DNA of 46,143 nucleotides from an uncultured Verrucomicrobiae bacterium (GCA_937976685.1 CALJWR010000240.1:1-46143), one strand, 5' to 3'; positions 2,667 through 18,180 are shown, numbered from the stretch's first letter. The notes: a model not told the origin generated them from the letters alone. Translations and numbers: made by a program.

Positions 2667-2835
2667 CAAGAATCCCGCCTCGCGGGAGCGGGATCATTGC
2701 GGGGAACGGGGGCCCGCGCAAGCACGGCCATCTGGAAAGAATTCGTTGGCCAAACGGATCGGGTTCAAACGACTTAACGGTTGTGGTTGCATTTCCGGCG
2801 ATGATTGACAACCCTCAAGGAGTCGGTTGCGTTTA

Positions 2836-5800
2836 ATGGATTCATCCGCACAGGTTGAGTTGGTGAGACGTTGCCAGCGCGGTGACAGCGCGGCGTGGGA
2901 AGAATTGGTTTCCGCCTTCTACGCCGAAGTGGGTCGTTTCATCTTTCTTCTGAATCCGGCCTATGCCGAAACTGAAGTGGAAGAAGTGGCGGCCGGTGTG
3001 TTCTTGGATTCGGTCCGGGCGGTGGCTTTCTTCGGCGGCCGAAATCCCGCGCGCGTTGGCTTGTTCTATGCCGCCCTGCGGAAAGCAGCCACCCATCATC
3101 CGCGGCGGGAAAGCAGGGTTCAGAATCCTCCGCAGCCAGCCGGTGGCGGGAACCCGAACGGGCGGTCCGGCCCCCCAGCCCATCTCGCGCTGTTTCTCGC
3201 CTTGGACCATCTCGGCGGACCCTGCCGGGATTTGATCGTCCTCCGATACTTTGGAAATTTGGAGTTGGCCGACCTGGCTCCCGAGTTCGAGGTGAGCGAG
3301 GCGACGCTCGCCATCAGAATTGCCAAGTGTCTCGGAACCTTGGGCGGACTGATGGCGTTGGAGGCCCCGGGCGGCGACCGGCAGGCTGCGGAGGAGGCCG
3401 AGGATGGGGCCTCCGCAGAACTGATTACTGCGGCGCTTCTGAGTTACCGCGAGTGGCGCCTTGGGCAACTGCCGCCAAGTCTCCAGCCTCCGGATTCCCT
3501 GCTCCCCCAAATTCGCGCGGCGCTTACCCGCTCGCCCGAAGCGCGGTCGCGCGTCGAGCTGCGCCGGGCGGCCCGGTTCGTTAAACCCGACATCGTGGCC
3601 AAGGCCATCGGTGCTGCCGCCGGCGTTGTCACCGTCGCCACAGGTATCGCGTTGGTCGCCAGCAGGACTGGGCGGGATGCCGGCGCGGGCGGAGGCTCGG
3701 CCCACGACAACCGGATGACGGGACTTGGCCTCAGCACGATAACGCCTCCCGGTCAGGAAACGAGCTTGAACCGCGGGACCGAGCGCGAGTTCGAGGAGTT
3801 TGTCAGCCGGCTGCTGCCGGTGAATCCCCTCCCTAGTCCGGCGCCGATTGCGGCCGGGGCTTCGACGGTCAACACCAGCGCACCGGAGCCGACGGAACCT
3901 TCTAGCGCTGGTGCCAGCTTGACCAGCCCATCCCCCTCTGCACCGACGGACGCGAAGCTGCAAGTCGCCAAGGACCCGTCTCGCAGCGCGGAAGCACCGT
4001 TGTCCAACAGTTCAGCAGCTACCCCAACGCTGACGACGGGCCGGGTAACCTCGAACGGCGACCCGACGGCGCCATCCGGAAGCGAGGCTTCTGGATTGAC
4101 CGTGACGGCATCCGGAGGTGCCGGCTCCAGCCAGCCACCGTGGACCGCCGAACAGGCGGAGGGGATGGCGCCCGCGTGGATGTTACGGGGATCCGGACCA
4201 GTCGCGCGTGCAGCGATGGAACTGCGGACGTTTGCCCATTACGGTGCCACCCCGCTGCTGGAAAATGTGCCGGCGACTTTTGGACGGGCTCTGAATTCTC
4301 CAGCGTTTCCGTTCGGTCAATCCGACGCCCAAGTGGCAGGGGGGGCGACCAACGTCCCCGCCGTCCCGAGCGCTCCCCGGAAGCCGGAGCCAATGCCCCT
4401 TTCCGCGGGGGACCAGCTTGCTGCCACCAAGGCGGAACCGGCCACCGGACCGGTTGGCGACTCGCTGGCCGCCGCCGTGGACGGAGTGGTCTCAGCGGCT
4501 GGCAGGCAACCGGATTCCGGCGGTTCCCCGGCCGTGGGAACCGGGGTTGCGGAGTTCTCAAATCAGACGGACTGGACGGTAGAAGTCGTCGCTGCGAGGC
4601 CCAGCGCCGGGGCTGCGGAGGTAGCGCCTCCAGAATTGACTGCGGCCTCCTCGGCGGCCACCGCAGCGGCGGTCAGCTCGATTGGGGAAGCGGCCCAAAG
4701 TGGCGACTCGGGATTGGCGTCTTCGCAAGCGAGGACCGACGTGGAGATTGCCCGCCAGCCGCTTGCGCCGAAGACCGACCGGAACGTGGAGACCCCGGAG
4801 CAGCTCGCAGCGACCGCGGCAGCCGAGTCCAACCTGCCCCAGGAGAACTCGCTCGTGGACGACTCGGTTCCCAAGACAGCGCCTCCTGATTCGATTGCGA
4901 CTGCAGTGGAACCGGTCCGGCGGCAGGAAGCGTCATCGCAGGCCTTCCAAATGCAGCTAGTCGCGGTCCCGGGCTCGAACAACGGCGGAAAGCGGGAGCA
5001 GAGTACCGACTCAGACGCTTCGCCACTCGCTCGTGCCGACACCCGTTCAAAGGTGGATTCTGACTCTGAGGTGGCGTTTTCAACTTCGGCTCCAAGTGAG
5101 GCAGAGGCGAAGCCGGCAGGCGGTCTCGCGTCCCGTCCCCTCATCGGGCTGAACCTGAACTTTCGCGTTCACCTGGGCGGCAAGCCGGTGGGTACCGTGG
5201 GTATCAGCGGTTCGAGGCCCTTCGCCGAGCCATCGGTTGCCGATTCACGGAATCCGACTTCCGGCGAAACCGGGGTTTCGGAGGGCGTTACTCTCGCTCC
5301 CGCTTCAGCGCCGAAGCCGATGCCAATCGCAGGCCGGGCGGAGAATTGGAACCGCCGGGTGACCCCGCTGCATCCGTTGGCGGAGCGAACCCACGCGTCG
5401 CGTCCCGCCCCGATCGCCTCGGCCTACCGATCGTCCGATCGCCCTTACCAAGCCAATCAGCCTCCCGTTCTGAGGGTTGCGAGTGTGAGGCCGGCAGCGG
5501 GCACGGCAAACGATTTTCTCTCAACCGATCCCGACGAGAAGGCTTTGGCCGCTGTCAATTCAGGGATGCTGCCGGAAACCGGAAGCGCGTCGGCGAAGTT
5601 CGTGAGGGAGGAGATCACCCGCAGCCTCCGAAGAAATCTCAACTCCCCGCCGATGCCCCAAGTCTTGGAGGAATTCCGCTTTGCTGACCGGGCCGGCCGG
5701 TTGGTGCTTCTTGACAGCGATGGGTCGGAGTTCCCGGTGGTATCAGAGTCAGGAGAGGAAGCGTTTGCCTCCCTCGCGTCGTTGGCGCGCACGCTTCGGA

Positions 5801-6027
5801 CGTTTGGCCTGCCGCTGCGGTTCTCGGCATCCGGCCTCAGCCTTTCCACCGGTGAAATCGTGACTTTTGAGGGCTGGGTGGAGCCGGAGGACGATTCGGT
5901 CTCCGAAGTTCCGCGCACCGCCAGCGAAGGCGGCCCCGAGGTTCTGGCGGCGGCACAGGTTCGCGGCGAGGTCCAAGTCGGCGCCCGGCAGCGCTTTCCG
6001 ATTAGTGCCACGAGCGGCCGGGATTGA
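2836..6027 (+). CDS. ECF sigma-70-like N-terminal domain fused to a TM segment, a long Ala/Pro/Ser-rich region and a small C-terminal beta domain
   Basis: The N-terminus LVRRCQRGDSAAWEELV...EVEEV is sigma region 2-like and ALDHLGGPCRDLIVLRYFGNL...TLAIRIAKCL is region 4-like. A hydrophobic stretch AIGAAAGVVTVATGIALVA is followed by roughly 600 aa of low complexity. Confidence 0.7.
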   Translation: MDSSAQVELVRRCQRGDSAAWEELVSAFYAEVGRFIFLLNPAYAETEVEEVAAGVFLDSVRAVAFFGGRNPARVGLFYAALRKAATHHPRRESRVQNPPQPAGGGNPNGRSGPPAHLALFLALDHLGGPCRDLIVLRYFGNLELADLAPEFEVSEATLAIRIAKCLGTLGGLMALEAPGGDRQAAEEAEDGASAELITAALLSYREWRLGQLPPSLQPPDSLLPQIRAALTRSPEARSRVELRRAARFVKPDIVAKAIGAAAGVVTVATGIALVASRTGRDAGAGGGSAHDNRMTGLGLSTITPPGQETSLNRGTEREFEEFVSRLLPVNPLPSPAPIAAGASTVNTSAPEPTEPSSAGASLTSPSPSAPTDAKLQVAKDPSRSAEAPLSNSSAATPTLTTGRVTSNGDPTAPSGSEASGLTVTASGGAGSSQPPWTAEQAEGMAPAWMLRGSGPVARAAMELRTFAHYGATPLLENVPATFGRALNSPAFPFGQSDAQVAGGATNVPAVPSAPRKPEPMPLSAGDQLAATKAEPATGPVGDSLAAAVDGVVSAAGRQPDSGGSPAVGTGVAEFSNQTDWTVEVVAARPSAGAAEVAPPELTAASSAATAAAVSSIGEAAQSGDSGLASSQARTDVEIARQPLAPKTDRNVETPEQLAATAAAESNLPQENSLVDDSVPKTAPPDSIATAVEPVRRQEASSQAFQMQLVAVPGSNNGGKREQSTDSDASPLARADTRSKVDSDSEVAFSTSAPSEAEAKPAGGLASRPLIGLNLNFRVHLGGKPVGTVGISGSRPFAEPSVADSRNPTSGETGVSEGVTLAPASAPKPMPIAGRAENWNRRVTPLHPLAERTHASRPAPIASAYRSSDRPYQANQPPVLRVASVRPAAGTANDFLSTDPDEKALAAVNSGMLPETGSASAKFVREEITRSLRRNLNSPPMPQVLEEFRFADRAGRLVLLDSDGSEFPVVSESGEEAFASLASLARTLRTFGLPLRFSASGLSLSTGEIVTFEGWVEPEDDSVSEVPRTASEGGPEVLAAAQVRGEVQVGARQRFPISATSGRD

Positions 6028-6034
6028 GGCCCCG

Positions 6035-6808
6035 TTAACGGGGAGGCGCGGCGCTGGCAACAATCACTTCGACCCGGCGGCTGCGGAGTTGCTCCACTAA
6101 CTCACCGGGCGCTCCCGCGTCGGTGACCACGGCGTGGACTTGCTGGAGGTCGCACACGAAGCCCATCGAGCGGCGCCCGAACTTGGTGTGATCCAGGCAG
6201 TAAATTACCCGCTGGGCAGCCCGCATCATCGCCACTTGAATCTCGATCAGCAAGGCGTGCGAGTTGGTAATTCCGTCCGTGGTGATGCCGCCAGCCCCCA
6301 TCACGGCCACGTCCGCGTGCATCTTCGAGAATGATTCCACGGCCAGCGGCCCCACCAAGACACCCAGCCGCGGATAGAGCACGCCCCCGGACAGCACCAC
6401 CTCGACCTGGCTGGAAGCCGCGTAGAGGTTCGCCACTGGCAGGGAATTGGTGATGATCTGCGGCTTCCGTGACTCCAAGTAACGGGCCGCGTGGTACGGC
6501 GTGGTGCCAGCGTCAATGATCACACTTTGCCCCGCACCAATCAGGTCCGCGCACGCGCGTCCAATCGCCTCCTTTTCGTCGAGCTGATGCGTGTCCCGGG
6601 CGTTAAACACAAACTCGTCCGAACGCGGATTCACCAAACGGGCCCCTCCGTGGGTCCGCCGTACGGACCCACCGCCTTCCAGCGCGGTGAGATCGCGGCG
6701 GACGGTGGACTGAGAAACTCCCAACTGGTTGGCCAGCTCCTCCAAGGAGGCGAATTCCACCTTTTGAAGGTATTCCTCGATTCGAGCTTGGCGTTCTTCG
6801 GCCTGCAC
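6035..6808 (-). CDS. DeoR/GlpR family transcriptional regulator (PVM locus regulator)
   Basis: HTH LANQLGVSQSTVRRDL, RTHGGA, and sensor-domain motifs IDAGTT and ITNSL; divergent from the BMC operon, as in PVM loci. Confidence 0.95.
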   Translation of the reverse strand: MQAEERQARIEEYLQKVEFASLEELANQLGVSQSTVRRDLTALEGGGSVRRTHGGARLVNPRSDEFVFNARDTHQLDEKEAIGRACADLIGAGQSVIIDAGTTPYHAARYLESRKPQIITNSLPVANLYAASSQVEVVLSGGVLYPRLGVLVGPLAVESFSKMHADVAVMGAGGITTDGITNSHALLIEIQVAMMRAAQRVIYCLDHTKFGRRSMGFVCDLQQVHAVVTDAGAPGELVEQLRSRRVEVIVASAAPPR

Positions 6809-6820
6809 GTTGGCAAATTG

Positions 6821-6860
6821 TTGGAAGATATTGAAAGATTATGCAAGAAATTTCTTGACG
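6821..6860. promoter_or_regulatory. Candidate DeoR operator / divergent promoter region
   Basis: AT-rich island with three tandem 10-bp units (TTGGAAGATA, TTGAAAGATT, ATGCAAGAAA) and a perfect 14-bp palindrome CAAGAAATTTCTTG (6844-6857) that overlaps TTGACG (6855-6860). Confidence 0.55.
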
Positions 6861-6894
6861 CAGCCAGCGGCCTATGGTCATTTGTCATCCAGAA

Positions 6895-7572
6895 ATGACT
6901 CCTCCCGGATCATCTCTGCCCCGTGCCGTGGTCGAACATCTGGTTCGGCAACTCGTGTACGAGCGTTTGGGAAAGCCGCTGCCCCGCGTGGCTTCGGCAC
7001 CGAACCCTCTGGTTGTCAACGTCAGCGCGCGCCATTGCCACCTCACCCAGGCGGCGGTGGAGGCGTTGTTTGGAAAGGGGCATCAATTAGGCGTCCACAA
7101 ATGGCTCTACCAGGACGGCCAGTTCGCCGCCAAGGAGACCGTGACGTTGATTGGTCCCCGGAGCCGCGTGATTTCGAATCTGCGAATTCTGGGTCCCTGC
7201 CGCAGCTTAAACCAGGTGGAACTCGCCTACACCGATTCCATTGCTCTGGGGTTCGAGATTCCGCTGAGGATTTCGGGTGACATCAAGGGCACGCCCGGCT
7301 GCATGTTGATGGGGCCGGCCGGTTTTTTTGAGATGAAGGAAGGCGTGATCCGGGCCTTGCGGCATGTTCACATGCATCCGGAGGACGCCGCCTTTTACGG
7401 AGTGAAAGCCGGTGACGCGATGAAACTGCGCATTGGCGGTCCCTGCGCCCTCACGCTGGAGCGCATGCTCTGCCGGGTGGACCCGAGCTTCAAACTGGAA
7501 GTCCACGTTGACACCGACGAGGGCAACGCCTGCAACTTGCAGCCGAACACCCCTTGCGAACTGATCAAATGA
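6895..7572 (+). CDS. pduL: PduL-type phosphate acyltransferase with N-terminal encapsulation peptide
   Basis: Motifs VSARHCHL, LYQDGQFAAKETV, ILGPCR, ALRHVHM and HVDTDEGNA; N-terminal amphipathic helix RAVVEHLVRQLVYERLG. ATG 6895 preferred as start. Confidence 0.95.
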   Translation: MTPPGSSLPRAVVEHLVRQLVYERLGKPLPRVASAPNPLVVNVSARHCHLTQAAVEALFGKGHQLGVHKWLYQDGQFAAKETVTLIGPRSRVISNLRILGPCRSLNQVELAYTDSIALGFEIPLRISGDIKGTPGCMLMGPAGFFEMKEGVIRALRHVHMHPEDAAFYGVKAGDAMKLRIGGPCALTLERMLCRVDPSFKLEVHVDTDEGNACNLQPNTPCELIK

Positions 7573-7600
7573 GAAACTGATTTCTCCTCCGTAGCGACTG

Positions 7601-7628
7601 ACTCCAAACTCCCAACTCCTGACACTTA
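7601..7628 (+). repeat. Short tandem heptamer repeat in BMC intergenic region
   Basis: ACTCCAA ACTCCCA ACTCCTG ACACTTA directly before the first BMC-H ATG. Confidence 0.5.
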
Positions 7629-7918
7629 TGAGCGAAGCACTCGGCATGATCGAAACCAAAGGCTACGTCGGCGCTGTTGAAGCCAGCGACGCGATGGTCA
7701 AGGCGGCCAACGTAACCCTCGTCAAAACCATCCCCATCGGCGGCGGTCTGATCACCGTCCTCGCCAAAGGGGACGTCGGCAGCGTCAAGGCGGCCGTAGA
7801 TGCCGGCTCGAAAGCGGCCGCGAAGGTGGGCGAACTCATCAGTTCGCACATTATCGCGCGCCCGCATGAGGACCTGCTCAAGTCGTTCCTGGGCGAATCC
7901 GCGCCAGCGAAGAAGTAG
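7628..7918 (+). CDS. BMC-H hexameric shell protein
   Basis: ALGMIETKG...DAMVKAANV...GDVGSVKAAVDAG...HIIARPH. Confidence 0.97.
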   Translation: MSEALGMIETKGYVGAVEASDAMVKAANVTLVKTIPIGGGLITVLAKGDVGSVKAAVDAGSKAAAKVGELISSHIIARPHEDLLKSFLGESAPAKK

Positions 7919-7957
7919 CGGCGACCGCAACCTCGACTCTCATCCCTCTCAAACTCT

Positions 7958-8236
7958 ATGGCACAACAAGCGATTGGCATGATCGAATGCAAGGGTCTGT
8001 GCGCGCTGCTCGAAGCCAGCGATGCCGCCCTCAAAGCCGCGAACGTCACCCTCGTCGGCTGGGAAAAGATTGGCAGCGGTTACGTGACGTCCTTCTTCCG
8101 CGGCGATGTGGCTGCGGTCAAGGCGGCCACCGACGCCGGCGCGGCGGCGGCGGCCCAAGTGGGGCAGGTCATCAGCGTACAAGTCATTCCCCGGCCACAC
8201 GAAGGTCTGAGCGCCCTCGGGAAGTGGCTGCAATAA
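7958..8236 (+). CDS. BMC-H hexameric shell protein
   Basis: AIGMIECKG...DAALKAANV...KIGSG...[13 protein letters not shown]...VIPRPH. Confidence 0.97.
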
Positions 8237-8330
8237 CCGAGCGTGCCAGCCGGCAGCGGGAGTTCAACGGATTTCGACCGCACGGTCCCCGCCGACTTCG
8301 AATGCTGGCGCCAGACATTGACTCAGCCCC

Positions 8331-9515
8331 TTGAAGATCCTCGTCGCCAACATCGGCTCCACTTCGCTGAAGTGGCGGCTGTTTGACTTCGCCAACGGCG
8401 GCGAAGCGATGCTGCACAAAGGCGGTTTCGAGCGGGTCAGCGACTATGCGGCTGCCATCGAGGATTGTCTGTCAGAGCTCAAACAAGCCGGAGTTCTGTC
8501 AAACGAGGCCGAGTTGGCCGGGGTTGGTTTCAAGACCGTCATTGCCAGGGACGTGACCGGTTGCGTCCGGTTGACGGAGGGCGTCCTGCGCGCGATGGAG
8601 GCCTACAACGGTCTCGCCCCGGCGCACAATCCACCGTACATCGCGGGCATTCGGCAATTCGCCCGGCGGATGCCGGCGACGCCGTTGGTGGGCCTCTTTG
8701 AGACCGCATTCTATCAGTGGGCGCCCGAGCCGGCGAAACGGTACGCGGTGCCCGTCTCGTGGCACGACCTCGGTGTGCGCCGCTGGGGTTTCCACGGTGC
8801 CAGCCACAAATTCATCGCCGAGCGCAGCGCCGAATTGCTCGGCCGGCCCGACGTGGCGCAGCGGGTGCAGAATCTTTATCGGGACGGGGGTGCCTCGCCG
8901 GTCAACTCTCCTGCGCTTCGCGTGATTTCGTGCCACCTGGGAGGCAGTTCCTCGGTGACGGGGATCCTGAACGGCGTGGCCCTCGGCAACAGCCTTGGCA
9001 TGAGCCCGCAATCGGGATTGCCGCACAACAATCGCGTCGGCGATCTGGACGCCTTTGCCCTCGGCTACGTGATGCGTTCGACCGGCCTGTCCCTCGATGA
9101 GGCGGAGCGCCTTCTCAGCAAAGAGGCGGGCCTGAAGGGATTGAGCGGTGGTTACGCCGACCTGCGCGATCTTCAGGCGCAGATCGCCGCGGGCAACCAC
9201 CGCGCCCGGCTTGCGGTGGACTTTCTCGCGCATGAGGCGCGGCGCTGGATCGGATCGTATTACCTCCAACTGAACGGACTGGACGCGCTCGTGTTCACGG
9301 CGGGCATGGGGGAAAACGAACCGGAGATCCGGTCGCTCATCACCGCCAACCTGGATCAACTGGGCATCCTGCTCGATCCCGCCAAGAACGCGACGGCCCG
9401 GGCCCGGGAGGCCGACATCAGCGCACCGGATTCCCGGGTCAAGGTGTGGGTCATTCCCACCAACGAAGAACTGGTCGTGGCGCGCGAAGTGCGACGCCTC
9501 CTGGAGGCGCAGTAA
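8331..9515 (+). CDS. ackA: Acetate/propionate kinase (TTG start)
   Basis: Motifs ILVANIGSTSLK, LAPAHNP, RRWGFHGASH, CHLGGSSS, VFTAGMGEN and IPTNEE. Confidence 0.95.
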   Translation: MKILVANIGSTSLKWRLFDFANGGEAMLHKGGFERVSDYAAAIEDCLSELKQAGVLSNEAELAGVGFKTVIARDVTGCVRLTEGVLRAMEAYNGLAPAHNPPYIAGIRQFARRMPATPLVGLFETAFYQWAPEPAKRYAVPVSWHDLGVRRWGFHGASHKFIAERSAELLGRPDVAQRVQNLYRDGGASPVNSPALRVISCHLGGSSSVTGILNGVALGNSLGMSPQSGLPHNNRVGDLDAFALGYVMRSTGLSLDEAERLLSKEAGLKGLSGGYADLRDLQAQIAAGNHRARLAVDFLAHEARRWIGSYYLQLNGLDALVFTAGMGENEPEIRSLITANLDQLGILLDPAKNATARAREADISAPDSRVKVWVIPTNEELVVAREVRRLLEAQ

Positions 9516-9519
9516 TCCC

Positions 9520-10236
9520 ATGCGATCGCTCCGTCATCTCTTTGAGAACAACCGGGCCTGGTCGGAGGACCTCCGGCGGCGCGATCCCCAATTCTTCGCG
9601 CGGCTGACGCGGCAGCAAAAACCGCAATACCTCTGGATCGGTTGCTCGGACAGCCGCGTGCCGGCCAACGAGATTGTCGGGCTGCTTCCCGGGGAGATCT
9701 TTGTACACCGGAATGTCGCCAACGTCGTGGTGCATACCGACCTCAACTGTCTGTCCGTGTTGCAGTACGCGGTGGACGTTCTGGGCGTGCGCGACGTGAT
9801 CGTCTGCGGACACTACGGTTGTGGCGGCGTGCTCTCGGCCTTGCGGGGAGACCGTTTGGGCCTGGCGAGCAACTGGCTGCGCCACGTCCAGGACGTCTAT
9901 CGGAAGCACCAAGCTCGCATTGACGGACTGGGCGGCGAGTCAGCGCGCTGCAACCGGCTCTGCGAGCTCAACGTGGTCGAGCAGGTCATGAACGTGTGCC
10001 AAACCACGGTGGTGGCGGAAGCGTGGGGCCGCGGTCAGCGCCTCGCGGTGCATGGCTGGATTTACGGCCTGCATGATGGCCTGCTGCGCGATCTCGGACT
10101 CTGTGTCACCGGCCCGGAGCAAATGGCTGCGGCCCTCGCGGCCGCACTGGCTCTCATCGGTGATTCCCCCGAAAAGATCTCACCCCGAGCCGGCCCCCCG
10201 GGCCACCCATTCTTGTCAACGACCTTAGCCCGTTAA
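9520..10236 (+). CDS. can: Beta-class carbonic anhydrase (Can/YadF-like)
   Basis: Zn-ligand motifs WIGCSDSRVP and VCGHYGCGG, plus FVHRNVAN, LCELNV and VHGWIY. Confidence 0.96.
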   Translation: MRSLRHLFENNRAWSEDLRRRDPQFFARLTRQQKPQYLWIGCSDSRVPANEIVGLLPGEIFVHRNVANVVVHTDLNCLSVLQYAVDVLGVRDVIVCGHYGCGGVLSALRGDRLGLASNWLRHVQDVYRKHQARIDGLGGESARCNRLCELNVVEQVMNVCQTTVVAEAWGRGQRLAVHGWIYGLHDGLLRDLGLCVTGPEQMAAALAAALALIGDSPEKISPRAGPPGHPFLSTTLAR

Positions 10237-10255
10237 CCTCATCCCAAAAAACATT

Positions 10256-10537
10256 ATGCCTCAAGCCATTGGAATGCTCGAAACCCGCGGCCTCGTCGCC
10301 CTGGTGGAAGGAACCGACGCCATGCTGAAAGCCGCGAACGTGGAACTCGCCGGCCCGATGACCCAGGTCGGCAACGCACTGGTCACCGCGGTCGTGGTGG
10401 GCGATGTCGCCGCCGTGAAAGCCGCCGTGGACGCCGGCGCCCAAGCCGTAAAGTCCATCAGCGGTGAGGTGGTCAGCGTTCACGTCATCGCCCGACCGCA
10501 CGCTGATGTTGAAGCGGTGCTGCCGAAGAAAAAGTAG
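10256..10537 (+). CDS. BMC-H hexameric shell protein
   Basis: AIGMLETRG...DAMLKAANV...[13 protein letters not shown]...HVIARPH. Confidence 0.97.
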   Translation: MPQAIGMLETRGLVALVEGTDAMLKAANVELAGPMTQVGNALVTAVVVGDVAAVKAAVDAGAQAVKSISGEVVSVHVIARPHADVEAVLPKKK

Positions 10538-10621
10538 GCGGACGGCGGAAGCCAGACGCCTGACCGTGGCCGCTGGGGCACCGTTCCAGACCTTGGCTTC
10601 TGAACCCTGACTTCTCCCGCC

Positions 10622-10939
10622 ATGTTCCTCGCCAAAGTCGAAGGTTCGGTCGTCGCGACAAAGAAGGACCCGGGCATGACCGGCCGCAAGCTGCTTCTGC
10701 TCCGCCCCATGCTCGTGGACGAGAAGGATCCGGCCAGGTTCCGCCCGGGGGCGAACACGATCGTCGCCGTGGACAGCGTGGGCGCCGGCGAAGGCGAACT
10801 GGTCCTGTTCTGCCAGGGGAGCTCGGCACGACTCGCGCCGGGACTCAAGGACTGCCCCGTGGACGCCGTGGTGATCGGCATTGTGGACACCGTGGATGTC
10901 CTCGGTCGGCAGGTTTTCAACGCCCGGACCCAAGCCTGA
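10622..10939 (+). CDS. BMC-P (EutN/CcmL) pentameric vertex protein
   Basis: MFLAKVEGSVVATKK...VAVDSVGAGEGELVL...GSSAR...DAVVIGIVD. Confidence 0.96.
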   Translation: MFLAKVEGSVVATKKDPGMTGRKLLLLRPMLVDEKDPARFRPGANTIVAVDSVGAGEGELVLFCQGSSARLAPGLKDCPVDAVVIGIVDTVDVLGRQVFNARTQA

Positions 10940-11010
10940 TGGCACGCTGACTCCTGGCCACTCGTCGAACCGCTACGCCGCATCTGGAACCCCCAACTCC
11001 CCCTCCCCGC

Positions 11011-12504
11011 ATGAGCACATCTCTCCCGGTCAACGAAGCCCTCATCCGTGACGTCGTCAGCGAAGTTCTCAGCCGCCTGGGCAAGGGCGCTCCCCCAGCC
11101 GCGTCGCCCGCGGTCAACCCCGCCTGCGGTTGTCCGACTGGCGCGAAGCCAGCCGCAGCACCGCCCCGCGGCACTTTTGGGGTTTTTCAGAACGCCGATG
11201 AGGCGTGCGCCGCGGCGCATGCGGCCTATCTGCAGCTTTCCGAAAAGGGGGTCGCCGGGCGGGTCAAGGTGGTGCAGATCGTCAAGGATCTCTGCTTCGC
11301 CCACGCCAAGGAGTGGGGTCGGATCGAACTGGAGGAAACGAAGATCGGCCGGCTGGACCACAAGATTGAGAAGCTCCTCGGGCAGCGAGGCATTCCGGGC
11401 GTGGAGTTCCTGAATCCCTACGGTCTCAGTGGCGACCACGGCATCACGCTCGAGGAGTACGCCCCGTTCGGTGTGATCGGCGCGGTGACGCCGAGCACGC
11501 ATTCAATTCCGACGATGGCCTGCAACATCATCAGCATGGTCGCCGCAGGCAATGCGATTGTCTTCAACGCGCATCCCGGAGCCTACAAGTGCGCGGTCAT
11601 GGCGGCGCGCGTCTTCAATGAGGCCATCCATCGCGAGCTGGGCATCGAGAACCTCGCCTGCATTGTGGATCCGCCAACCCTCGACTCCTTCAACGCCATC
11701 GCGAAAAACGAGCACGTCCGGCTCCTCTGCGTGACGGGCGGGCCGGGCGTCGTGAAGGCTGCCATGGCCAGTGGCAAGCGCGCCATCTGCGCGGGGCCGG
11801 GCAACCCTCCCGTGCTGGTGGACGGAACCAGTTGCCTTGCTAACGCGGCGCGCTGCGTCGTCCTAGGCGCCGCCTACGACAACAATCTGCTTTGCATCGG
11901 CGAGAAGCAGGTCTTCGTGTTGGAACCGTACTTCGACAAGTTCACGGCGGAGCTTGAGAAGGCAGGTGGCTATCGCCTCACGGACGCCCAGGTCGAACGG
12001 CTGACCAAGGCGGCGTTCGTGATTCCGCCGGGCACCGGCGCGGGCTGCGGTCATCCGGTGGTGAATCGCGATCTCGTGGGACGCGACCCCGAGGTGCTCG
12101 CCCGGGCGGCGGGGGCGAGCATCCCCGCCGGCACGCAACTGCTCTTCGCCGAAACACCCCCCGATCACCTGTTCGTGGACGAGGAGCAGATGATGCCGTT
12201 TCTGCCCATCGTGCGTGTCAAGACGGTCGAGGAGGGAATTGCGCACGCCAAACGGTCAGAGCGGGGCTACAAACACTCGGCCATGATTCACTCGCACGAC
12301 GTGGCGAACATGACGGCGATGGCCAGGGCCCTTGAGACCACGCTCTTCGTGAAGAACGGCGCCTGCGTGGCAGGCCTTGGCCATGGCGGCGAGGGCTATG
12401 CCAACTTCAGCATCGCCACGACCACCGGCGAGGGCATCTGCAACCCGCGCACCTTCACGCGCGTTCGCCGCTGCGTGATGGTGGACAAGCTGAGGATCTT
12501 CTGA
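11011..12504 (+). CDS. CoA-acylating aldehyde dehydrogenase (EutE/PduP-like) with N-terminal encapsulation peptide
   Basis: Motifs PFGVIGAVTPST, VTGGPGVV, AGPGNPP, catalytic DNNLLCIGEK, EQMMP and TTTGEG; N-terminal helix NEALIRDVVSEVLSRLG. Confidence 0.96.
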   Translation: MSTSLPVNEALIRDVVSEVLSRLGKGAPPAASPAVNPACGCPTGAKPAAAPPRGTFGVFQNADEACAAAHAAYLQLSEKGVAGRVKVVQIVKDLCFAHAKEWGRIELEETKIGRLDHKIEKLLGQRGIPGVEFLNPYGLSGDHGITLEEYAPFGVIGAVTPSTHSIPTMACNIISMVAAGNAIVFNAHPGAYKCAVMAARVFNEAIHRELGIENLACIVDPPTLDSFNAIAKNEHVRLLCVTGGPGVVKAAMASGKRAICAGPGNPPVLVDGTSCLANAARCVVLGAAYDNNLLCIGEKQVFVLEPYFDKFTAELEKAGGYRLTDAQVERLTKAAFVIPPGTGAGCGHPVVNRDLVGRDPEVLARAAGASIPAGTQLLFAETPPDHLFVDEEQMMPFLPIVRVKTVEEGIAHAKRSERGYKHSAMIHSHDVANMTAMARALETTLFVKNGACVAGLGHGGEGYANFSIATTTGEGICNPRTFTRVRRCVMVDKLRIF

Positions 12505-12654
12505 TGCGCGCACACGGTCCTTGGTTGGCGGTCCCCCGTCGGCCGCGGAAGACAACCCGCGGCGGCCTCGCCGGAGCTCCAGCCGGGAAGCTCCCGCGAC
12601 TGGCTGACGAAACCACCCGCCAGGAACGCGGACCCCAGAGCAACCTGTCAACCC

Positions 12655-12963
12655 ATGCTCCTCGCCCGTGTTGAAGGTTCGGTGATCGCCACCCGGAAGC
12701 ATCCCAGCTACGAGGGCTGGCGGCTGTTGATCTGTCAGCCGATCGCTGCTTCTGGTGAGCCCGAAGGAACGCCCCAGATCGCGATTGATCCCCACGGCGC
12801 CGGCCTGCACGAACGCGTCATCATCTCGTCCGACGGCATGGCCGCGCGTCTGGCGGTGGGCGATCCGAAAAGCCCGGCCCGCTGGATGATCATCGGGTTA
12901 GTGGATGAGCCCGAGTCGCTCGCCGCCGCTGTCCCGCAGACGTCAAGGAGTCCTGCAGCATGA
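12655..12963 (+). CDS. BMC-P (EutN/CcmL) vertex protein
   Basis: MLLARVEGSVIATRKHPS...IAIDPHGAG...ISSDG..AR...SPARWMIIGLVD. Confidence 0.95.
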   Translation: MLLARVEGSVIATRKHPSYEGWRLLICQPIAASGEPEGTPQIAIDPHGAGLHERVIISSDGMAARLAVGDPKSPARWMIIGLVDEPESLAAAVPQTSRSPAA

Positions 12964-13262
12964 GACTTGGCACCGTCATCGGGCGGGTGACGCTCAGCAA
13001 GACGATCCCTCCCTTCAAGGGGGGGCGCTGGCTGGTGATCAGTCCCTTCACGCGACAACATTTTCAGCATCGGCGCGAACCGCCCGTGGGCTTGAGTCGC
13101 GATCCTTCCTTGGTGGCTTACGACAGTCTCGGTGGCGGCGTGGGCGATACCGTCGGCTTCAGCGAGGGACGCGAGGCGGCCATGCCCTTTGACCAGCCGA
13201 CGCCCGTGGACGCGATCACGGTGGCGATCATTGACGACGTGTTCTATTCACCCCAGACCTGA
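12960..13262 (+). CDS. BMC-P (EutN/CcmL) vertex protein
   Basis: MRLGTVIGRVTLSK...AYDSLGGGVGD...SEGREAAMPF...PVDA..AIID; ATGA overlap with the previous gene. Confidence 0.93.
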   Translation: MRLGTVIGRVTLSKTIPPFKGGRWLVISPFTRQHFQHRREPPVGLSRDPSLVAYDSLGGGVGDTVGFSEGREAAMPFDQPTPVDAITVAIIDDVFYSPQT

Positions 13263-13293
13263 AGGCCGTGGCTCACGGCTCCATGCCTGACCT

Positions 13294-14361
13294 ATGAAGA
13301 AAGTCCTCAGTCAACGTGACGTGGAAGAGATGCTCCGTCAGGGAGCGGATCTCACCGCCATCCCAGCGGACACCATTCTCACACCGTCCGCCCGCGACCT
13401 GCTCCGCGACGTGCTGGAAAACGTCCGCACTCCGTCCAGCCTTACGACTCCGACCAGGGTCGCCGTCGCGGCCGCCAGTTCGACGCAGCCGCCGGCGAAG
13501 CCTCTGAACTCAAAGTCGCCCAAGGCCGAACTGGAGGCCTTCTTCCACTCGGCTCACGCCCTCGATCTCAAGCAGCAAATCTGCGAGATGGGCCGCCGTC
13601 TGTGGCAGCGTGCGTATGTGGATGGCAACGGCGGCAACATGGCCATCCGCGTTGGCGAAGACATCGCCCTTTGTACCCCGACGCTGGTCAGCAAAGGCTC
13701 GCTCAAGCTCGAAGACATGTGCCTCGTGGACTTCGAGGGGAATCAGTTGCTCGGCATCAAGAAGCGCACCAGCGAGATCCTGATGCACCTGCAAATCATG
13801 AAGCGGCAGCCCAAAGCCATCGCCACGTGCCACTGCCATCCGCCCTACGCCACGGGCTTCGCGGTGGCCGGCATCGTGCCCCCGACGTGCATGCTGCCGG
13901 AGTACGAGGTCTTTTGCGCGGTGGCCGTCGCACCGTACCGGACGCCCGGCACGCCGGAGATGGGCAAACTCGTGGCCGACCTCGTGGACCAGCACAACAC
14001 CATCCTCATGGCCAACCACGGTGTCGTCACGTGGAGCCACAACAACATCGAGGAGGCCTACTGGCGGATGGAAATCATCGAGGCGTACTGCCGCACCTTG
14101 ATGGTCGCGGCCCAGCTCGGCGTGAAGCCCAACACATTCTCGCCCCAGCAGCTTCAGGATCTGCTCAAGATCAAGCAGAGCCTCGGCTACGTGGACCCGC
14201 GTTACGGGCTGAAGGAATGCGAACTTTGCGACAATGACGAGTGGCGCCCGGGGGTCACCTGCCAGGTCCCGGCCCAATCCGAGACCACGACCGGCTACGA
14301 CGCCGAGGCGGAAGCGGTTGTCCAGGCCGTGACCGATCAGATCATGGCGCAGCTCAAGTGA
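13294..14361 (+). CDS. Class II aldolase/adducin family (fuculose/rhamnulose-1-P aldolase-like PVM signature enzyme)
   Basis: Motifs GNGGN, TPTLVSKG, TSEILMH, HCHPPYAT and LMANHGV; N-terminal extension; C-terminal helix EAEAVVQAVTDQIMAQLK. Confidence 0.93.
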   Translation: MKKVLSQRDVEEMLRQGADLTAIPADTILTPSARDLLRDVLENVRTPSSLTTPTRVAVAAASSTQPPAKPLNSKSPKAELEAFFHSAHALDLKQQICEMGRRLWQRAYVDGNGGNMAIRVGEDIALCTPTLVSKGSLKLEDMCLVDFEGNQLLGIKKRTSEILMHLQIMKRQPKAIATCHCHPPYATGFAVAGIVPPTCMLPEYEVFCAVAVAPYRTPGTPEMGKLVADLVDQHNTILMANHGVVTWSHNNIEEAYWRMEIIEAYCRTLMVAAQLGVKPNTFSPQQLQDLLKIKQSLGYVDPRYGLKECELCDNDEWRPGVTCQVPAQSETTTGYDAEAEAVVQAVTDQIMAQLK

Positions 14362-14413
14362 GCCTCGCGTCGCTCCAGTTCCGTCCCTGTTGCTGCTTGA
14401 TCCCTCCTTGCCC

Positions 14414-15340
14414 ATGAAAGTCACAATCATCGGTGGCGGCGGCCGCGTCGGCTCCTGCGCCGCCTTCGCCCTTCAGTGCGGCGGCGTGGTCGCCGAAATC
14501 CAGTTGATGGACGCCAACCAGGCGGCCGCCGAAGGCGAGGCGCTCGATCTGCTGCACGGCGCGGCATTCACGGCCGATCAACGCCTGTACGCGGGCGACT
14601 ACGCGCGGGCGGCCGACAGCGACCTGTTCCTCATCACGGCCGGCCTGCGGCGCAAACCCGACGAGTCCAGGCTCGACCTCATCAACCGTAACGTCGCGCT
14701 CTTCACCCAGATCCTCGACGCGATCAAGGCGGCCGGTTTTCGCAGGGACGCTCACGTGTTCGTCGTGTCAAACCCGGTGGACATTCTCACCCAGCTCGCC
14801 GTGGGGCGACTGGGTCTGCCTTGGTCGCAGGTCTATGGCTTGGGCACCATGCTGGACAGCGCCCGGTTCAGCTCCCTGATCGCGGACGAATTCAAGCTGG
14901 CCCCCACCCAGGTCAAAGCCCTCATCCTGGGCGAACACGGCGATTCGATGGTGCCCATCTGGTCCAGCGCCACGGTCAATGGCCTGCCGCTGGCGGGCCT
15001 GCCGCAGTTCACGCCGGGTTTTCAGAACGCGGTCTTCGAACGGACCAAGGGCAGCGGCGCCGAGGTGATCAAGCGCAAGGGCGGTGCGGGCTGGGCGGTG
15101 GCCGTCGCCATCCGGGACGTGATCCACGCCGTGGCGTTGAACCAGCGGCGGTTGCTGCCCGTGTCCTCCCTGGTGCAGGGCGCGTACGGCATTCGCAACG
15201 TTTGTCTCAGTGTGCCGTCGGTCGTGGGACGCGCCGGCGTCGAGAAGCACGTCGAGATCAAACTCTGGCCGAAGGAGATTACCGGCCTGCAGAACTCGGC
15301 GCGGGCCCTGGAGGACACCCTGGCCAAGGTCAGGGCGTAA
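14414..15340 (+). CDS. ldh: L-lactate/malate dehydrogenase family (PVM LDH)
   Basis: Motifs IIGGGGRVG, GEALDLLHG, ITAGLRRKPDESRLDL, VVSNPVD, LDSARF and LGEHGDS; ATG 14414. Confidence 0.92.
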   Translation: MKVTIIGGGGRVGSCAAFALQCGGVVAEIQLMDANQAAAEGEALDLLHGAAFTADQRLYAGDYARAADSDLFLITAGLRRKPDESRLDLINRNVALFTQILDAIKAAGFRRDAHVFVVSNPVDILTQLAVGRLGLPWSQVYGLGTMLDSARFSSLIADEFKLAPTQVKALILGEHGDSMVPIWSSATVNGLPLAGLPQFTPGFQNAVFERTKGSGAEVIKRKGGAGWAVAVAIRDVIHAVALNQRRLLPVSSLVQGAYGIRNVCLSVPSVVGRAGVEKHVEIKLWPKEITGLQNSARALEDTLAKVRA

Positions 15341-15343
15341 CCC

Positions 15344-16627
15344 GTGAAATCGCTCGACGCCAAGCTGGCTGAGATCAGGGCCAACCCCCGCTCGCGCGCC
15401 TTCATCATCGCGGACGCCAAAGACGCAGACATGGCCTTCGGCGTGAAGGCCCCCGGGCCCCGGTCCTATTTATCAGCGCAGGGCGCGCGGCCGGCGCAGT
15501 TTTCGCCCGAGGTGTGGACGCGCGAGGAGTTCGGCTACCGCAACCTGCCCGAGTTCCTCGACATCATCCGCGAAGTGACCCGCCAGGGCTTGGTGGACAT
15601 CATGCTCATGTCCGCCTACGTCAACGACCTCCTCACGATCAAGGAGGGCCTCTTCAAGGACTCTCACGTCACGCCTGCGGCCCGCGCCAACGACACCACG
15701 GACGTGTGGGCCGCCCGCCACGGGAGCTACACCAAGGAACCGGCGCAGCCTTTCCGGAGCGCGAGCATTGACCAGATCCAATGCGGGCGCGTGGAGTGCG
15801 ACCGGACGACCGAGGAGTTTCCCGGGGCCAACCTCGGCCTGTACAGCGTGACCTGGGTCAACGATCTCGAACAGGACCGCCGCACGCTGCTCGAGTACAA
15901 AGCCTTCCGCGATGAGGCCGAGCGAAAACGGTTCCGCCATTTCCTCGAAGTCTTCGATCCGAACGTGGACAGCGGCATTCCGCCGGAAAAACTCGGCGAG
16001 TTCATCAACGACCAGATCCTCCGCACGCTCGCCGGTGTGCCCGAGACCGGACGGCCGCTCTTTCTCAAGATCGTCTATCACGGTCCGCGCGCGATGGAGG
16101 AGCTCTGCCAGTACGACCCAAACATGGTCGTCGGCATTCTGGGCGGCGGGGCGGGCACCACGTACGATGCCTTCAAGCTCATCCACGAGGCGCAAAAGTA
16201 CGGCGCGCGGGTGGCGTTGTTCGGGCGCAAGATCAACCACGCCGAGCACCAGCTTGCGTTCATCGAGATGCTGCGGCTGATCACGGATGGCCACGTCACG
16301 CCGGAAGAGGCCGTACGTGCCTACCACGGTGTGCTTCAAGCCAAGGGCATCCAGCCGCATCGCCCGCTCGACGAGGACTTGGAACTCACCGACCAAGCCA
16401 TGAGCTACGGCGGTGGAGGGACGCGGACCACGGTGCAAATCCGGGCCAATCCCCTCGTCGGGCCGGCGCGACCGACGGTACCCAAAAGCGCAAGTGCGTC
16501 CGCGAAGGCGGAATTGACCGCACCCGTCTGGCCCACCCGGCCCGACGGCTCGCCTGACTTCGCCGCGATGAATTCCGCCCAGCGTGCGGCGTTCGATGCC
16601 TGGCGCCTCAAGCGGCGGTTCGGTTGA
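15344..16627 (+). CDS. TIM-barrel aldolase/decarboxylase-like protein (resembles OiaC 3-oxo-isoapionate decarboxylase)
   Basis: Starts 3 nt after the ldh stop and has strongly GC3-biased codons. Motifs FIIADAKDADM, RANDTTD, LGLYSVT, FLKIVY, GILGGGAGTT and GARVALFGRKIN. The family call rests on recollection of the motif series, not on a search. Confidence 0.6.
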   Translation: MKSLDAKLAEIRANPRSRAFIIADAKDADMAFGVKAPGPRSYLSAQGARPAQFSPEVWTREEFGYRNLPEFLDIIREVTRQGLVDIMLMSAYVNDLLTIKEGLFKDSHVTPAARANDTTDVWAARHGSYTKEPAQPFRSASIDQIQCGRVECDRTTEEFPGANLGLYSVTWVNDLEQDRRTLLEYKAFRDEAERKRFRHFLEVFDPNVDSGIPPEKLGEFINDQILRTLAGVPETGRPLFLKIVYHGPRAMEELCQYDPNMVVGILGGGAGTTYDAFKLIHEAQKYGARVALFGRKINHAEHQLAFIEMLRLITDGHVTPEEAVRAYHGVLQAKGIQPHRPLDEDLELTDQAMSYGGGGTRTTVQIRANPLVGPARPTVPKSASASAKAELTAPVWPTRPDGSPDFAAMNSAQRAAFDAWRLKRRFG

Positions 16628-16677
16628 ATCCCGGAAGTCAATCGGGCCAGCCCGCGGCCGGGGCAATCGCTGCCCGA

Positions 16678-16875
16678 TCAACCCAGTGAGCGGCCTTGAG
16701 CCGCCCACCCTCGGCGCATCAAGCCCAGCAAGTGCGCCAAGGCATCCTCATAGGCCCGTCCTTTGGCGGCAGCGAGCTGCCGGGCGCGTTTGTCGAGTTG
16801 GGCCGCCATCCCGGCGCATTTCGCCGCCGGACAGCCCATCACCGCGAGCAGTTGCGCGAGTTCGGCAAGGTCCAT
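16678..16875 (-). CDS. Small helical hypothetical protein
   Basis: ATG start, protein-like amphipathic sequence (MAAQLDKRARQLA...YEDALAHLLGLM), co-oriented with and downstream of the cyclophilins. Confidence 0.6.
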   Translation of the reverse strand: MDLAELAQLLAVMGCPAAKCAGMAAQLDKRARQLAAAKGRAYEDALAHLLGLMRRGWAAQGRSLG

Positions 16876-16925
16876 CTAACGAAGCATCCCGGGTGAGGCA
16901 CCCCGCCCGCGCCGGCAAGCGTCGC

Positions 16926-17426
16926 TTACCCCGCCTGCTCGGCCGGGACGATCTTCACGCTGACCAGCGTCTGTTTGGTGGTCGGACGATCGCCGGGTTG
17001 GGTGGGTGTCGTGGCGATCTTGTCGAGCACGTCGTCGCCCTTGATCAACCGGCCAAACGCCGTGTACTGACGATCCAGGAAACGGGCGTCGGCGTGGCAG
17101 ATGAAGAACTGGCTGCCGGCGGAATCGGGGTCCTGCGCACGGGCCATCGAGAGGACCCCGCGGACGTGCGGCCGGTCGTTGAACTCGGCCTTGATCTGAT
17201 AGTTCGGCCCGCCGGTGCCCCAGCGACGCTGCTGGGAATCGTCCCTAGTCAGCGGGTCGCCTCCCTGGATCATGAAACCCTTGATGACCCGGTGGAAGCA
17301 GGTGCCGTCGTAAAAGCCCTGCCGGGCCAGCTTCTTGAAGTTCTCGACGTGGCCGGGCGCGACGTCCGGCCAGAACTCGAGGACCATTTCGCCGGCACTG
17401 GTGGTGAGGATGGCGACTTCGTTCAT
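16926..17426 (-). CDS. Cyclophilin-type peptidyl-prolyl isomerase (cytoplasmic)
   Basis: Motifs FYDGTCFHRVIKGFMIQGGDP, LSMAR, SAGSQFFI and YTAFG. Confidence 0.97.
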   Translation of the reverse strand: MNEVAILTTSAGEMVLEFWPDVAPGHVENFKKLARQGFYDGTCFHRVIKGFMIQGGDPLTRDDSQQRRWGTGGPNYQIKAEFNDRPHVRGVLSMARAQDPDSAGSQFFICHADARFLDRQYTAFGRLIKGDDVLDKIATTPTQPGDRPTTKQTLVSVKIVPAEQAG

Positions 17427-17445
17427 GGGATGGATGGCTGGGTAA

Positions 17446-18180
17446 TTACTTGGTGGCTTCGGCGGGTAACAGGGTGACGGACTTGATGTAGTCCAGGTTC
17501 GGGAAGTCCTTCTTCAGGTAGGCGTTGCCCTCCATCTGGATGCGGCTCTGGTCCGGACCCCGGCCGCGGGGCGCGCCTTCGCCGTACTCGGCGTTGATCT
17601 TGTCCACCACGTCCATGCCCTCGACCACTTTGCCGAACTGCGAAAAGCCCATCGTGTCGAGCCGCGTGTTGTCGGCGAAGTTGATGAAAAACTGGGTGGT
17701 GCGGGTGTTGGGGCCTGCCATGGCGTAGGTCAGCGTCCCGCGTTTGTTGCTGCCTTTGACGGGGTCGTCCGGGATCGGCGCCCCGCGCCATCTGGCGGCT
17801 ACCTTCGGATCACCGTGAATCCCGAACTGGCACATGAAACCGGAAATCACCCGGAAGAACGCCATATCCGTAAAGTACCCAGCCCGGACGAGGTTGTAGA
17901 AGCGGTCCGCCCCGTTGGGCGACAAGGAGCGGGTGACCTCGACGGTGAACTTGCCCTTGGTGGTGTCGAACTGGACCCGGTATGTCTCGGGTGCCTTCTC
18001 GGTGAGCTTGGCCGGGTCCATCAGGTCGGCGGCAGGCGTGGCATTCGGAACCGCGCTGGCTTGCAGCTTCGGAACGGGCGGTGCGGGTGGCGCATCGCCC
18101 TTCGACGGAGCGTCGGCAGCGTGGCTCCACGCCGCCGTGAGGTTCAGGCAAAGAAAGGCGGTCAACAGCGTTTTCATCAT
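17446..18180 (-). CDS. Cyclophilin-type PPIase with signal peptide
   Basis: Likely start MMKTLLTAFLCLNLTAAWSHA (signal peptide), a Pro/Ala linker, then FFRVISGFMCQFG and AMAGPNTRTTQFFIN. Confidence 0.93.
   Translation of the reverse strand: MMKTLLTAFLCLNLTAAWSHAADAPSKGDAPPAPPVPKLQASAVPNATPAADLMDPAKLTEKAPETYRVQFDTTKGKFTVEVTRSLSPNGADRFYNLVRAGYFTDMAFFRVISGFMCQFGIHGDPKVAARWRGAPIPDDPVKGSNKRGTLTYAMAGPNTRTTQFFINFADNTRLDTMGFSQFGKVVEGMDVVDKINAEYGEGAPRGRGPDQSRIQMEGNAYLKKDFPNLDYIKSVTLLPAEATK

Follow-up and report, generated by a model that had tools for sequence, protein, structure and literature searches.

The window analysed here, a stretch of 46,143 nt from an uncultured Verrucomicrobiae bacterium (GCA_937976685.1 CALJWR010000240.1:1-46143; G+C ~65%), holds at positions 6035-16627 a locus for a bacterial microcompartment (BMC). 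Judged by its gene content, this locus is a standard metabolosome operon of the Planctomycetes-Verrucomicrobia (PVM) type, a kind associated with growth on fucose and rhamnose. The sole true addition to it here is a gene for a beta-carbonic anhydrase (CA), which recurs in PVM operons of related genomes; the gene that closes the locus, encoding a protein of 427 aa, belongs to the PVM core. All coordinates are positions in the whole window.

The locus comprises one divergent DeoR gene and 13 co-oriented genes, 12 of which were named in Pfam and NCBIfam profile searches of translated open reading frames (ORFs), while the 13th, a 427-aa ORF, matched no Pfam family. The gene set and coordinates claimed in a first-pass annotation of this DNA were all recovered in these searches, and its intergenic gaps of 3-19 nt match the ORF coordinates, which leave 4 nt between AckA and CA, 19 nt between CA and the following BMC-H gene, and 3 nt between the lactate/malate dehydrogenase (LDH/MDH)-family gene and the 427-aa ORF. 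The genes are as follows.

6035-6808 (-): DeoR-family regulator, divergent from the operon (PF00455 146 bits, PF08220 63.5 bits)
6874-7572 (+): PduL-type phosphotransacylase (PF06130 234.9 bits, residues 48-222), with an amphipathic helix and then a linker at the N-terminus
7628-7918 (+): BMC-H shell protein 1 (PF00936 91.6 bits)
7958-8236 (+): BMC-H shell protein 2 (PF00936 98.4 bits)
8331-9515 (+): AckA, acetate/propionate-family kinase (PF00871 291.6 bits), without terminal extension
9520-10236 (+): CA, Can type, 238 aa (PF00484 176.7 bits, NF007756 282.5 bits)
10256-10537 (+): BMC-H shell protein 3 (PF00936 78.8 bits)
10622-10939 (+): BMC-P vertex protein 1 (PF03319 102.4 bits)
11011-12504 (+): CoA-acylating aldehyde dehydrogenase, AldDH (PF00171; NF011927 556.5 bits, cut-off 403), with an N-terminal amphipathic helix and linker
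12655-12963 (+): BMC-P vertex protein 2 (PF03319 89.5 bits)
12960-13262 (+): BMC-P vertex protein 3 (PF03319 58.4 bits)
13294-14361 (+): class II aldolase, the PVM signature enzyme (PF00596 141.5 bits, residues 94-268), with a C-terminal amphipathic helix
14390-15340 (+): LDH/MDH-family dehydrogenase, a known optional PVM component (PF00056 and PF02866)
15344-16627 (+): 427-aa terminal gene, a predicted class I aldolase-fold TIM barrel (fold and profile match, no Pfam match)

The sections of Axen 2014 (PMC4207490) that we drew on describe PVM loci by an aldolase signature enzyme, DeoR, acetate kinase, PduL, AldDH, an LDH/MDH-domain gene and a BMC-P triplet. In the window, the class II aldolase gene (PF00596) directly follows the BMC-P genes, the acylating AldDH, PduL, acetate kinase and DeoR are all in the locus, and the shell is represented by a BMC-P triplet (three PF03319 genes) and three BMC-H genes (PF00936). 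Synteny is common to the window and 63 related loci, and DeoR occupies the same place in most related loci with enough upstream flank. AckA scores 283.7 bits against TIGR00016, slightly below the cut-off of 293.4, and every NCBIfam match of the class II aldolase falls under its cut-off. Compared with published PVM loci (Axen 2014, PMC4207490; Sutter 2021, PMC8217296), the gene set is the same except that the window adds a Can-type beta-CA between AckA and the third BMC-H gene.

By its translation, the CA is real, intact and of Can type, bearing out the first-pass call of an intact beta-CA at 9520-10236. It exceeds the curated cut-offs of both the Can equivalog NF007756 (282.5 bits against 251, over residues 1-204) and PF00484 (176.7 bits against 25.7), and it has C42, D44, R46, H98 and C101, which we take to be the zinc ligands and the Asp-Arg dyad of beta-CAs. 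E. coli Can (NF007756) has the same Cys/Asp/Arg/His/Cys set at the same residue numbers, their zinc-site roles again being presumed; the window CA differs from it in being embedded in a shell-protein operon. The order AckA-CA-BMC-H is no assembly artefact, because independent DNA contigs span it: contigs from two other public runs bridge these genes at ~97% identity, one of them spanning 7150-11000 with 112 differences and no gap and two others covering 7717-9745 and 9716-10877. Public hot-spring and microbial-mat metagenome DNA runs contain 28-37% of the sampled words of 6800-16700, and of the two runs aligned to the locus it was the hot-spring run that gave the long contig ~97% identical to it. 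In two metatranscriptome runs only ~6% of the sampled words were present; the RNA contigs, 90-95% similar to the window, overlap portions of several PVM genes, and one of 434 nt falls within the CA gene (~90% identity).

Elsewhere in the window's own genome (an assembly 80% complete), PF00484 finds two further matches, both on contigs other than this one. At G000:C9:15848-16297 (-), this genome carries a second beta-CA domain (125.7 bits) inside a 594-aa open frame, which may encode a fusion protein.

Occurrence of the CA in PVM loci

We searched for the CA in 400 genomes of the same order together with the window's own (401 in total; G-, L- and f-codes below are the genomes, loci and families of this survey). 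One orthologue each was found at E<=1e-40 in 142/401 genomes, and flanks were examined for 140 orthologues, a count outside which the window's own genome and G311 fall. Seventeen of these 140 lie inside PVM loci, at three different positions, which agrees with the earlier description of the CA as an unusual addition to a PVM operon. The arrangement seen in the window, AckA-CA-BMC-H (position 1), accounts for 14 (G075, G056, G258, G014, G329, G285, G308, G190, G005, G097, G066, G151, G350 and G063). Other placements are Aldol-CA-terminal gene (G020), Aldol-CA-LDH-terminal gene (G027) and Aldol-CA (G068). A separate scan of 80 loci, described below, added a further locus with the CA behind the aldolase (L037) and a locus 96-100% identical to the window (L001).

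The CA-bearing PVM operon is thus a recurrent, lineage-restricted variant. With the window's genome included, the 18 genomes that have the CA in a PVM locus represent 11 family codes, eight of the genomes falling in family f15, and the position-1 arrangement alone spans rows with 8 family codes. In the window's own family the CA lies elsewhere in the four other CA-bearing genomes, and among metagenome contigs one of the best 80 CA relatives is in PVM context. Absence of the CA from the orthologous loci of relatives, a possibility raised in the first-pass annotation, therefore holds for most of them, including L006, the nearest distinct locus, but not for all (17/140 in PVM loci).

Outside PVM loci (n = 123), the commonest neighbours of the CA, read by eye, are dapA (15/123) and dapB (13/123), and no recurrent carboxylase or transporter partner was found beside these 123 orthologues. 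The idea that the CA goes together with the LDH/MDH-like gene was considered and rejected: the two co-occur in just three of the CA-bearing loci, namely the window, L001 and L123. In eight PVM loci of the main AckA-CA clade, a 129-aa glyoxalase/VOC gene (PF00903, 43.5 bits) stands between the CA and the third BMC-H gene (L008 5685-6074 (+), L065, L119, L120, L124, L125, L126 and L107); it is absent from the window. With eight loci holding a VOC gene there, the AckA-BMC-H slot therefore appears to gather accessory genes.

The three different positions imply more than one insertion, and we conclude that the CA has moved into PVM operons several times in this order. Two trees bear on the number of moves. 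For the CA, a quick maximum-likelihood tree was built from 125 rows after 18 had been dropped (17 aligned through a stop codon, including the position-1 L090, and one short). On this tree 12 position-1 CAs together with L092 form one clade (SH-aLRT 100), and a second group (support 93) unites the window with L001 and G075. The four CAs at position 2 are spread over the tree; the sister of one is a CA from the same genus that lies outside BMC loci (support 99). A second tree, of AckA and AldDH, covers the 61 loci that have both proteins at >=85% coverage. There the main position-1 loci form a grade with a clade of eight CA-less loci nested above, L006, the nearest distinct relative of the window, has no CA, and each position-2 locus stands beside CA-less sisters. 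At least seven changes into or out of PVM context are needed on the CA tree and at least seven on the locus tree, both being quick trees built without bootstraps or an inferred root, on which gains and losses are not separable. L092 (G074:C219:184-3861) has a CA with a long tail (236 aa) in the position-1 clade, and the 1.5 kb flanking it in each direction are free of PVM genes; this CA may have moved back out of the locus, or the contig may be misjoined.

The 427-aa terminal protein

Relatives of the 427-aa protein are abundant. A word-indexed search returned at least 8000 candidates at E<=0.001; among the matches listed, identities were 75-100% and the named ones were "hypothetical protein" of Verrucomicrobia. 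A HMMER search of 50%-identity representatives found 1099 relatives, many of 320-350 aa and covering only residues 1-355. Within the order, the protein was matched in 234/401 genomes (E<=1e-60). We collected 80 genome loci with it as query and mapped the window's proteins onto each. In 63/71 informative loci its gene is the terminal gene after the PVM genes, the informative set consisting of these 63 PVM loci and eight with at least 3 kb of upstream DNA but no PVM gene (the other 9/80 have too little upstream DNA). Directly upstream of it in the 63 PVM loci is the aldolase gene in 33, the LDH-like gene in 28 and the CA in two.

Because it is terminal in 63/71 informative related loci, the 427-aa gene is no addition but a normal, near-universal terminal member of PVM loci, and the initial view of this TIM-barrel gene as an extra falls. 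The link once drawn between it and the CA dissolves as well: most CA-less loci have the 427-aa gene, and the CA is present in only five of the 63 PVM loci that end in it. Conversely, five genomes (G075, G258, G014, G285 and G056) have a CA-bearing locus whose last gene is the aldolase, and they carry the 427-aa gene on a separate contig.

An AlphaFold2 model from a 28-sequence alignment (mean pLDDT 82.2) predicts a (beta/alpha)8 barrel (residues 1-354) and a helix modelled with confidence (411-426), with a disordered linker (355-391) between them; an additional insert at residues 42-62 is poorly modelled. The linker and terminal helix are absent from the short relatives, and the long relatives have a common conserved C-terminal motif. 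In Foldseek searches against PDB, the best matches were E. coli LsrF, M. jannaschii ADH synthase and the archaeal fructose-bisphosphate (FBP) aldolase of T. tenax (E 3e-9 to 3e-8; probability 1.00; target-normalised TM-scores 0.66-0.79), and the list extends to tagatose-bisphosphate aldolases (E up to 8e-7) at identities of 10-15%. A family profile of the protein matched PDB sequences of LsrF (E 1.1e-6) and ADH synthase (3e-4); the alignment profile was required, since a single-sequence search against PDB chains gave only a chance hit. A conserved lysine of the profile aligns with residue 177 of the T. tenax FBP aldolase, presumably its Schiff-base lysine, and K242 is kept in 80/80 loci and 23/28 diverse relatives.

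Fold and profile together suggest that the 427-aa protein is a distant relative of the DhnA/FbaB/LsrF class I aldolases that stands outside their Pfam membership. We do not place it in that family, which we take to be PF01791, because it matched no Pfam family at E<=0.001, this one included; in NCBIfam its sole match was ADH synthase, at 15.9 bits against a cut-off of 241. Like LsrF, ADH synthase and the T. tenax FBP aldolase it is predicted to fold as a TIM barrel whose Schiff-base position holds a lysine, and with LsrF it shares an aligned C-terminal Gly-Gly/Gly-Arg region. It differs from all three in the insert at 42-62, the linker, the conserved C-terminal helix and the 10-15% identity. 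The protein carries motifs of sugar-phosphate type. Most likely it cleaves ketose phosphates, as a second enzyme of the locus to do so, and is no decarboxylase.

The first-pass annotation had labelled this gene OiaC-like and a putative decarboxylase. That label was rejected, as no decarboxylase family appeared for it in Pfam, NCBIfam, PDB sequences or the listed Foldseek matches, and a class I aldolase fold was found instead. The reading of the terminal gene thus changes from an exotic decarboxylase to a core, still unnamed aldolase-like PVM enzyme. In two of five annotated BMC-free contexts (L036 8684-9979 and L039 8744-9919), its homologue directly follows a prokaryotic ketohexokinase gene (PF25270) on the same strand; in L039 a gene with a GH95 domain lies upstream of the homologue and a glpX-type fructose-bisphosphatase gene downstream.

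Possible roles of the CA

Family membership suggests the pathway of this locus. Following the published model of PVM loci, the class II aldolase would yield dihydroxyacetone phosphate (DHAP) and lactaldehyde, and AldDH, PduL and AckA would take lactaldehyde through lactyl-CoA and lactyl-phosphate to lactate and ATP, the aldehyde steps being enclosed by a shell of the three BMC-H and three BMC-P proteins. Limisphaera cells grown on rhamnose contain BMCs, according to excerpts of a 2026 report (PMC13608581).

The explanation that we favour, at a probability of about 0.5, is a standard PVM operon with a core class I aldolase-fold gene and a co-transcribed CA that acts outside the shell. The CA would be transcribed with the operon yet remain outside the shell, as AckA probably does, and would speed the equilibration of CO2 and bicarbonate while lactate, pyruvate and DHAP form. 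Bicarbonate could then feed the carboxylation of pyruvate or phosphoenolpyruvate derived from lactate and DHAP, or the acid load might be eased. Targeting evidence is consistent with this placement. Parts of PMC4594438 describe the encapsulation peptide as an amphipathic helix of ~17 residues at an enzyme terminus, attached through a linker of low conservation. Termini read by eye show N-terminal amphipathic helices with Pro/Ala-rich linkers on PduL and AldDH and such a helix at the C-terminus of the aldolase, whereas no encapsulation-peptide-like helix and linker was seen on the CA, AckA or the LDH-like protein; beyond its native C-terminal helix the CA carries only a Pro/Lys/Arg-rich tail. 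Position-1 tails are Lys/Arg/Pro-rich; the main clade conserves its tail, which does not resemble that of the window's group, and at position 2 all four CAs (210-223 aa) lack an extension. The slot that holds the CA also takes a VOC gene, the window's own genome holds two further PF00484 matches, and the CA appears dispensable because the nearest distinct locus, L006, lacks it. On these observations, a soluble accessory enzyme is favoured over cargo by roughly three to one.

Several points weigh against a CA working outside the shell. Repeated recruitment into a shell operon is equally compatible with a CA in the lumen and a CA in the cytosol. Anaplerotic bicarbonate is needed by every sugar pathway, which leaves unexplained why this operon gains a CA. 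No RNA contig crosses 9515/9520 or 10236/10256 in the two metatranscriptome runs, which hold ~6% of the words, and the pathway steps are taken from the Planctopirus and Limisphaera literature, that is, by analogy with other organisms. The 14 listed position-1 CAs and L092 measure 233-253 aa, against a median of 214 aa for the 122 other listed orthologues, of which three reach 233 aa; this comparison is weak, since the long-tail rows represent just two or three lineages. Compared with most orthologues of the order, the window CA has a tail extended by ~20 residues, which could be a non-canonical targeting signal. Packing by piggy-backing is also possible, and a missing helix is therefore compatible with encapsulation.

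These last points feed an explanation that we consider unlikely, in which the CA is true cargo of the metabolosome lumen, converting CO2 into bicarbonate that leaves through pores or buffering the protons of AldDH, with its tail as the signal. Its place among shell genes at gaps of 4 and 19 nt, the recruitment into PVM loci at three positions, and the length and conservation of the tail within the main position-1 clade would all be expected of cargo. The missing amphipathic helix and linker would not, since PduL, AldDH and the aldolase have them, nor would the unlike tails of the two position-1 lineages, the unextended position-2 CAs or the close relatives without the CA; moreover, Pfam and NCBIfam assign a reaction that releases or uses CO2 to none of the enzymes in the locus. 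The more specific proposal that a basic, proline-rich tail packs the CA, making PVM organelles the first aldehyde-processing BMCs with a lumenal inorganic-carbon step, seems to us improbable; if true, the lumenal CA would serve CO2 trapping, bicarbonate supply or proton buffering. It is doubtful, too, that the CA has no tie to the BMC and rides along as a neutral passenger: a housekeeping gene caught in a permissive intergenic slot and kept since the cell needs a CA. One Can-type orthologue per genome at E<=1e-40 implies a gene that moved rather than duplicated, the trait is a minority one (17/140 in the order, 1/80 in the metagenome sample), and nested relatives have lost the CA while the same slot takes an unrelated VOC gene. 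Against this reading, three insertion positions and at least seven changes on two trees suggest a repeated, retained association, and position 1 persists over rows with eight family codes. A sole housekeeping CA under a sugar-inducible operon would moreover be costly, although the window's own genome has its two further PF00484 matches.

The model of the first-pass annotation, a PVM variant whose substrate is decarboxylated by the 427-aa TIM barrel while the CA handles the released CO2, now looks very improbable. Schiff-base enzymes are in general able to decarboxylate beta-keto acids, and the best NCBIfam match of the class II aldolase is the OxoTetrPhDc decarboxylase family, at only 106.4 bits against a cut-off of 250. 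The distributions of the two genes speak against the model, however, with the 427-aa gene closing 63/71 informative loci and the CA found in only five of those 63, and with five CA-bearing loci lacking the 427-aa gene in the locus. So do the nearest structures, which are sugar-phosphate aldolases and LsrF, the ketohexokinase gene that precedes the homologue in other contexts, and the family searches, none of which ties the 427-aa protein to a decarboxylase. Neither a CO2-releasing step nor a lumenal CA is indicated, and the CA has no canonical encapsulation peptide.

A working analogy for a CA outside the shell is CynT, the beta-CA that manages bicarbonate in the catabolic cyn operon of E. coli. 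CynT is likewise a beta-CA serving as an accessory in a catabolic operon; it differs in that the cyn operon has a known bicarbonate-consuming step, cyanase, while the window locus has no step known to use or release inorganic carbon. The carboxysomal CAs (CsoSCA, CcaA and CcmM) resemble the window CA in being encoded among BMC shell genes. The window locus differs from carboxysomes in having an ordinary Can-type CA within a catabolic, aldehyde-processing locus, and no carboxysome-specific genes were found among the annotated genes of the window. Those sections of PMC4207490 and PMC8217296 that we drew on mention CA for carboxysomes only, and the word "carbonic" is absent from the 2026 Limisphaera report (PMC13608581). 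In the full-text literature no metabolosome locus, of PVM type or another, was found described with a CA; this search did not cover supplementary locus tables, in which such loci may be listed.

CA is commonly seen as a carboxysome enzyme; here a Can-type CA has been drawn repeatedly into a catabolic BMC operon within one bacterial order. If it works outside the shell, it would be a natural case of an operon recruiting bicarbonate management and would suggest that high fucose or rhamnose flux through the organelle strains the inorganic-carbon or pH balance of the cell. If it is cargo, a step would have to be added to metabolosome chemistry as now accepted.

Other features of the window

A scan of 5900-17500 for promoters and terminators returned no promoter-like and three terminator-like sites, fewer than in shuffles. 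Upstream of DeoR, a 1066-aa open frame (2827-6027 (+)) has no Pfam match and may not be a true gene because it failed a third-position G+C filter for likely genes. The remainder of the window encodes ribosomal protein S2, cyclophilins, hypD, haem and cell-wall genes and a second LDH/MDH-family gene (1677-2669 (-)); no further sugar genes were found among the annotated genes outside the locus. The class II aldolase has a ~90-residue N-terminal extension (13294-13570) ahead of its Pfam domain, which starts at residue 94. The PVM "LDH" (14390-15340) reaches neither the L-LDH nor the MDH cut-off in NCBIfam and has Arg at the position that we take to distinguish lactate (Gln) from malate (Arg) dehydrogenases. 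On the strength of these scores and this Arg, its substrate may be neither lactate nor pyruvate. The 14-residue motif around this position is identical in 23/30 orthologous matches, and the Arg is kept in 29/30.

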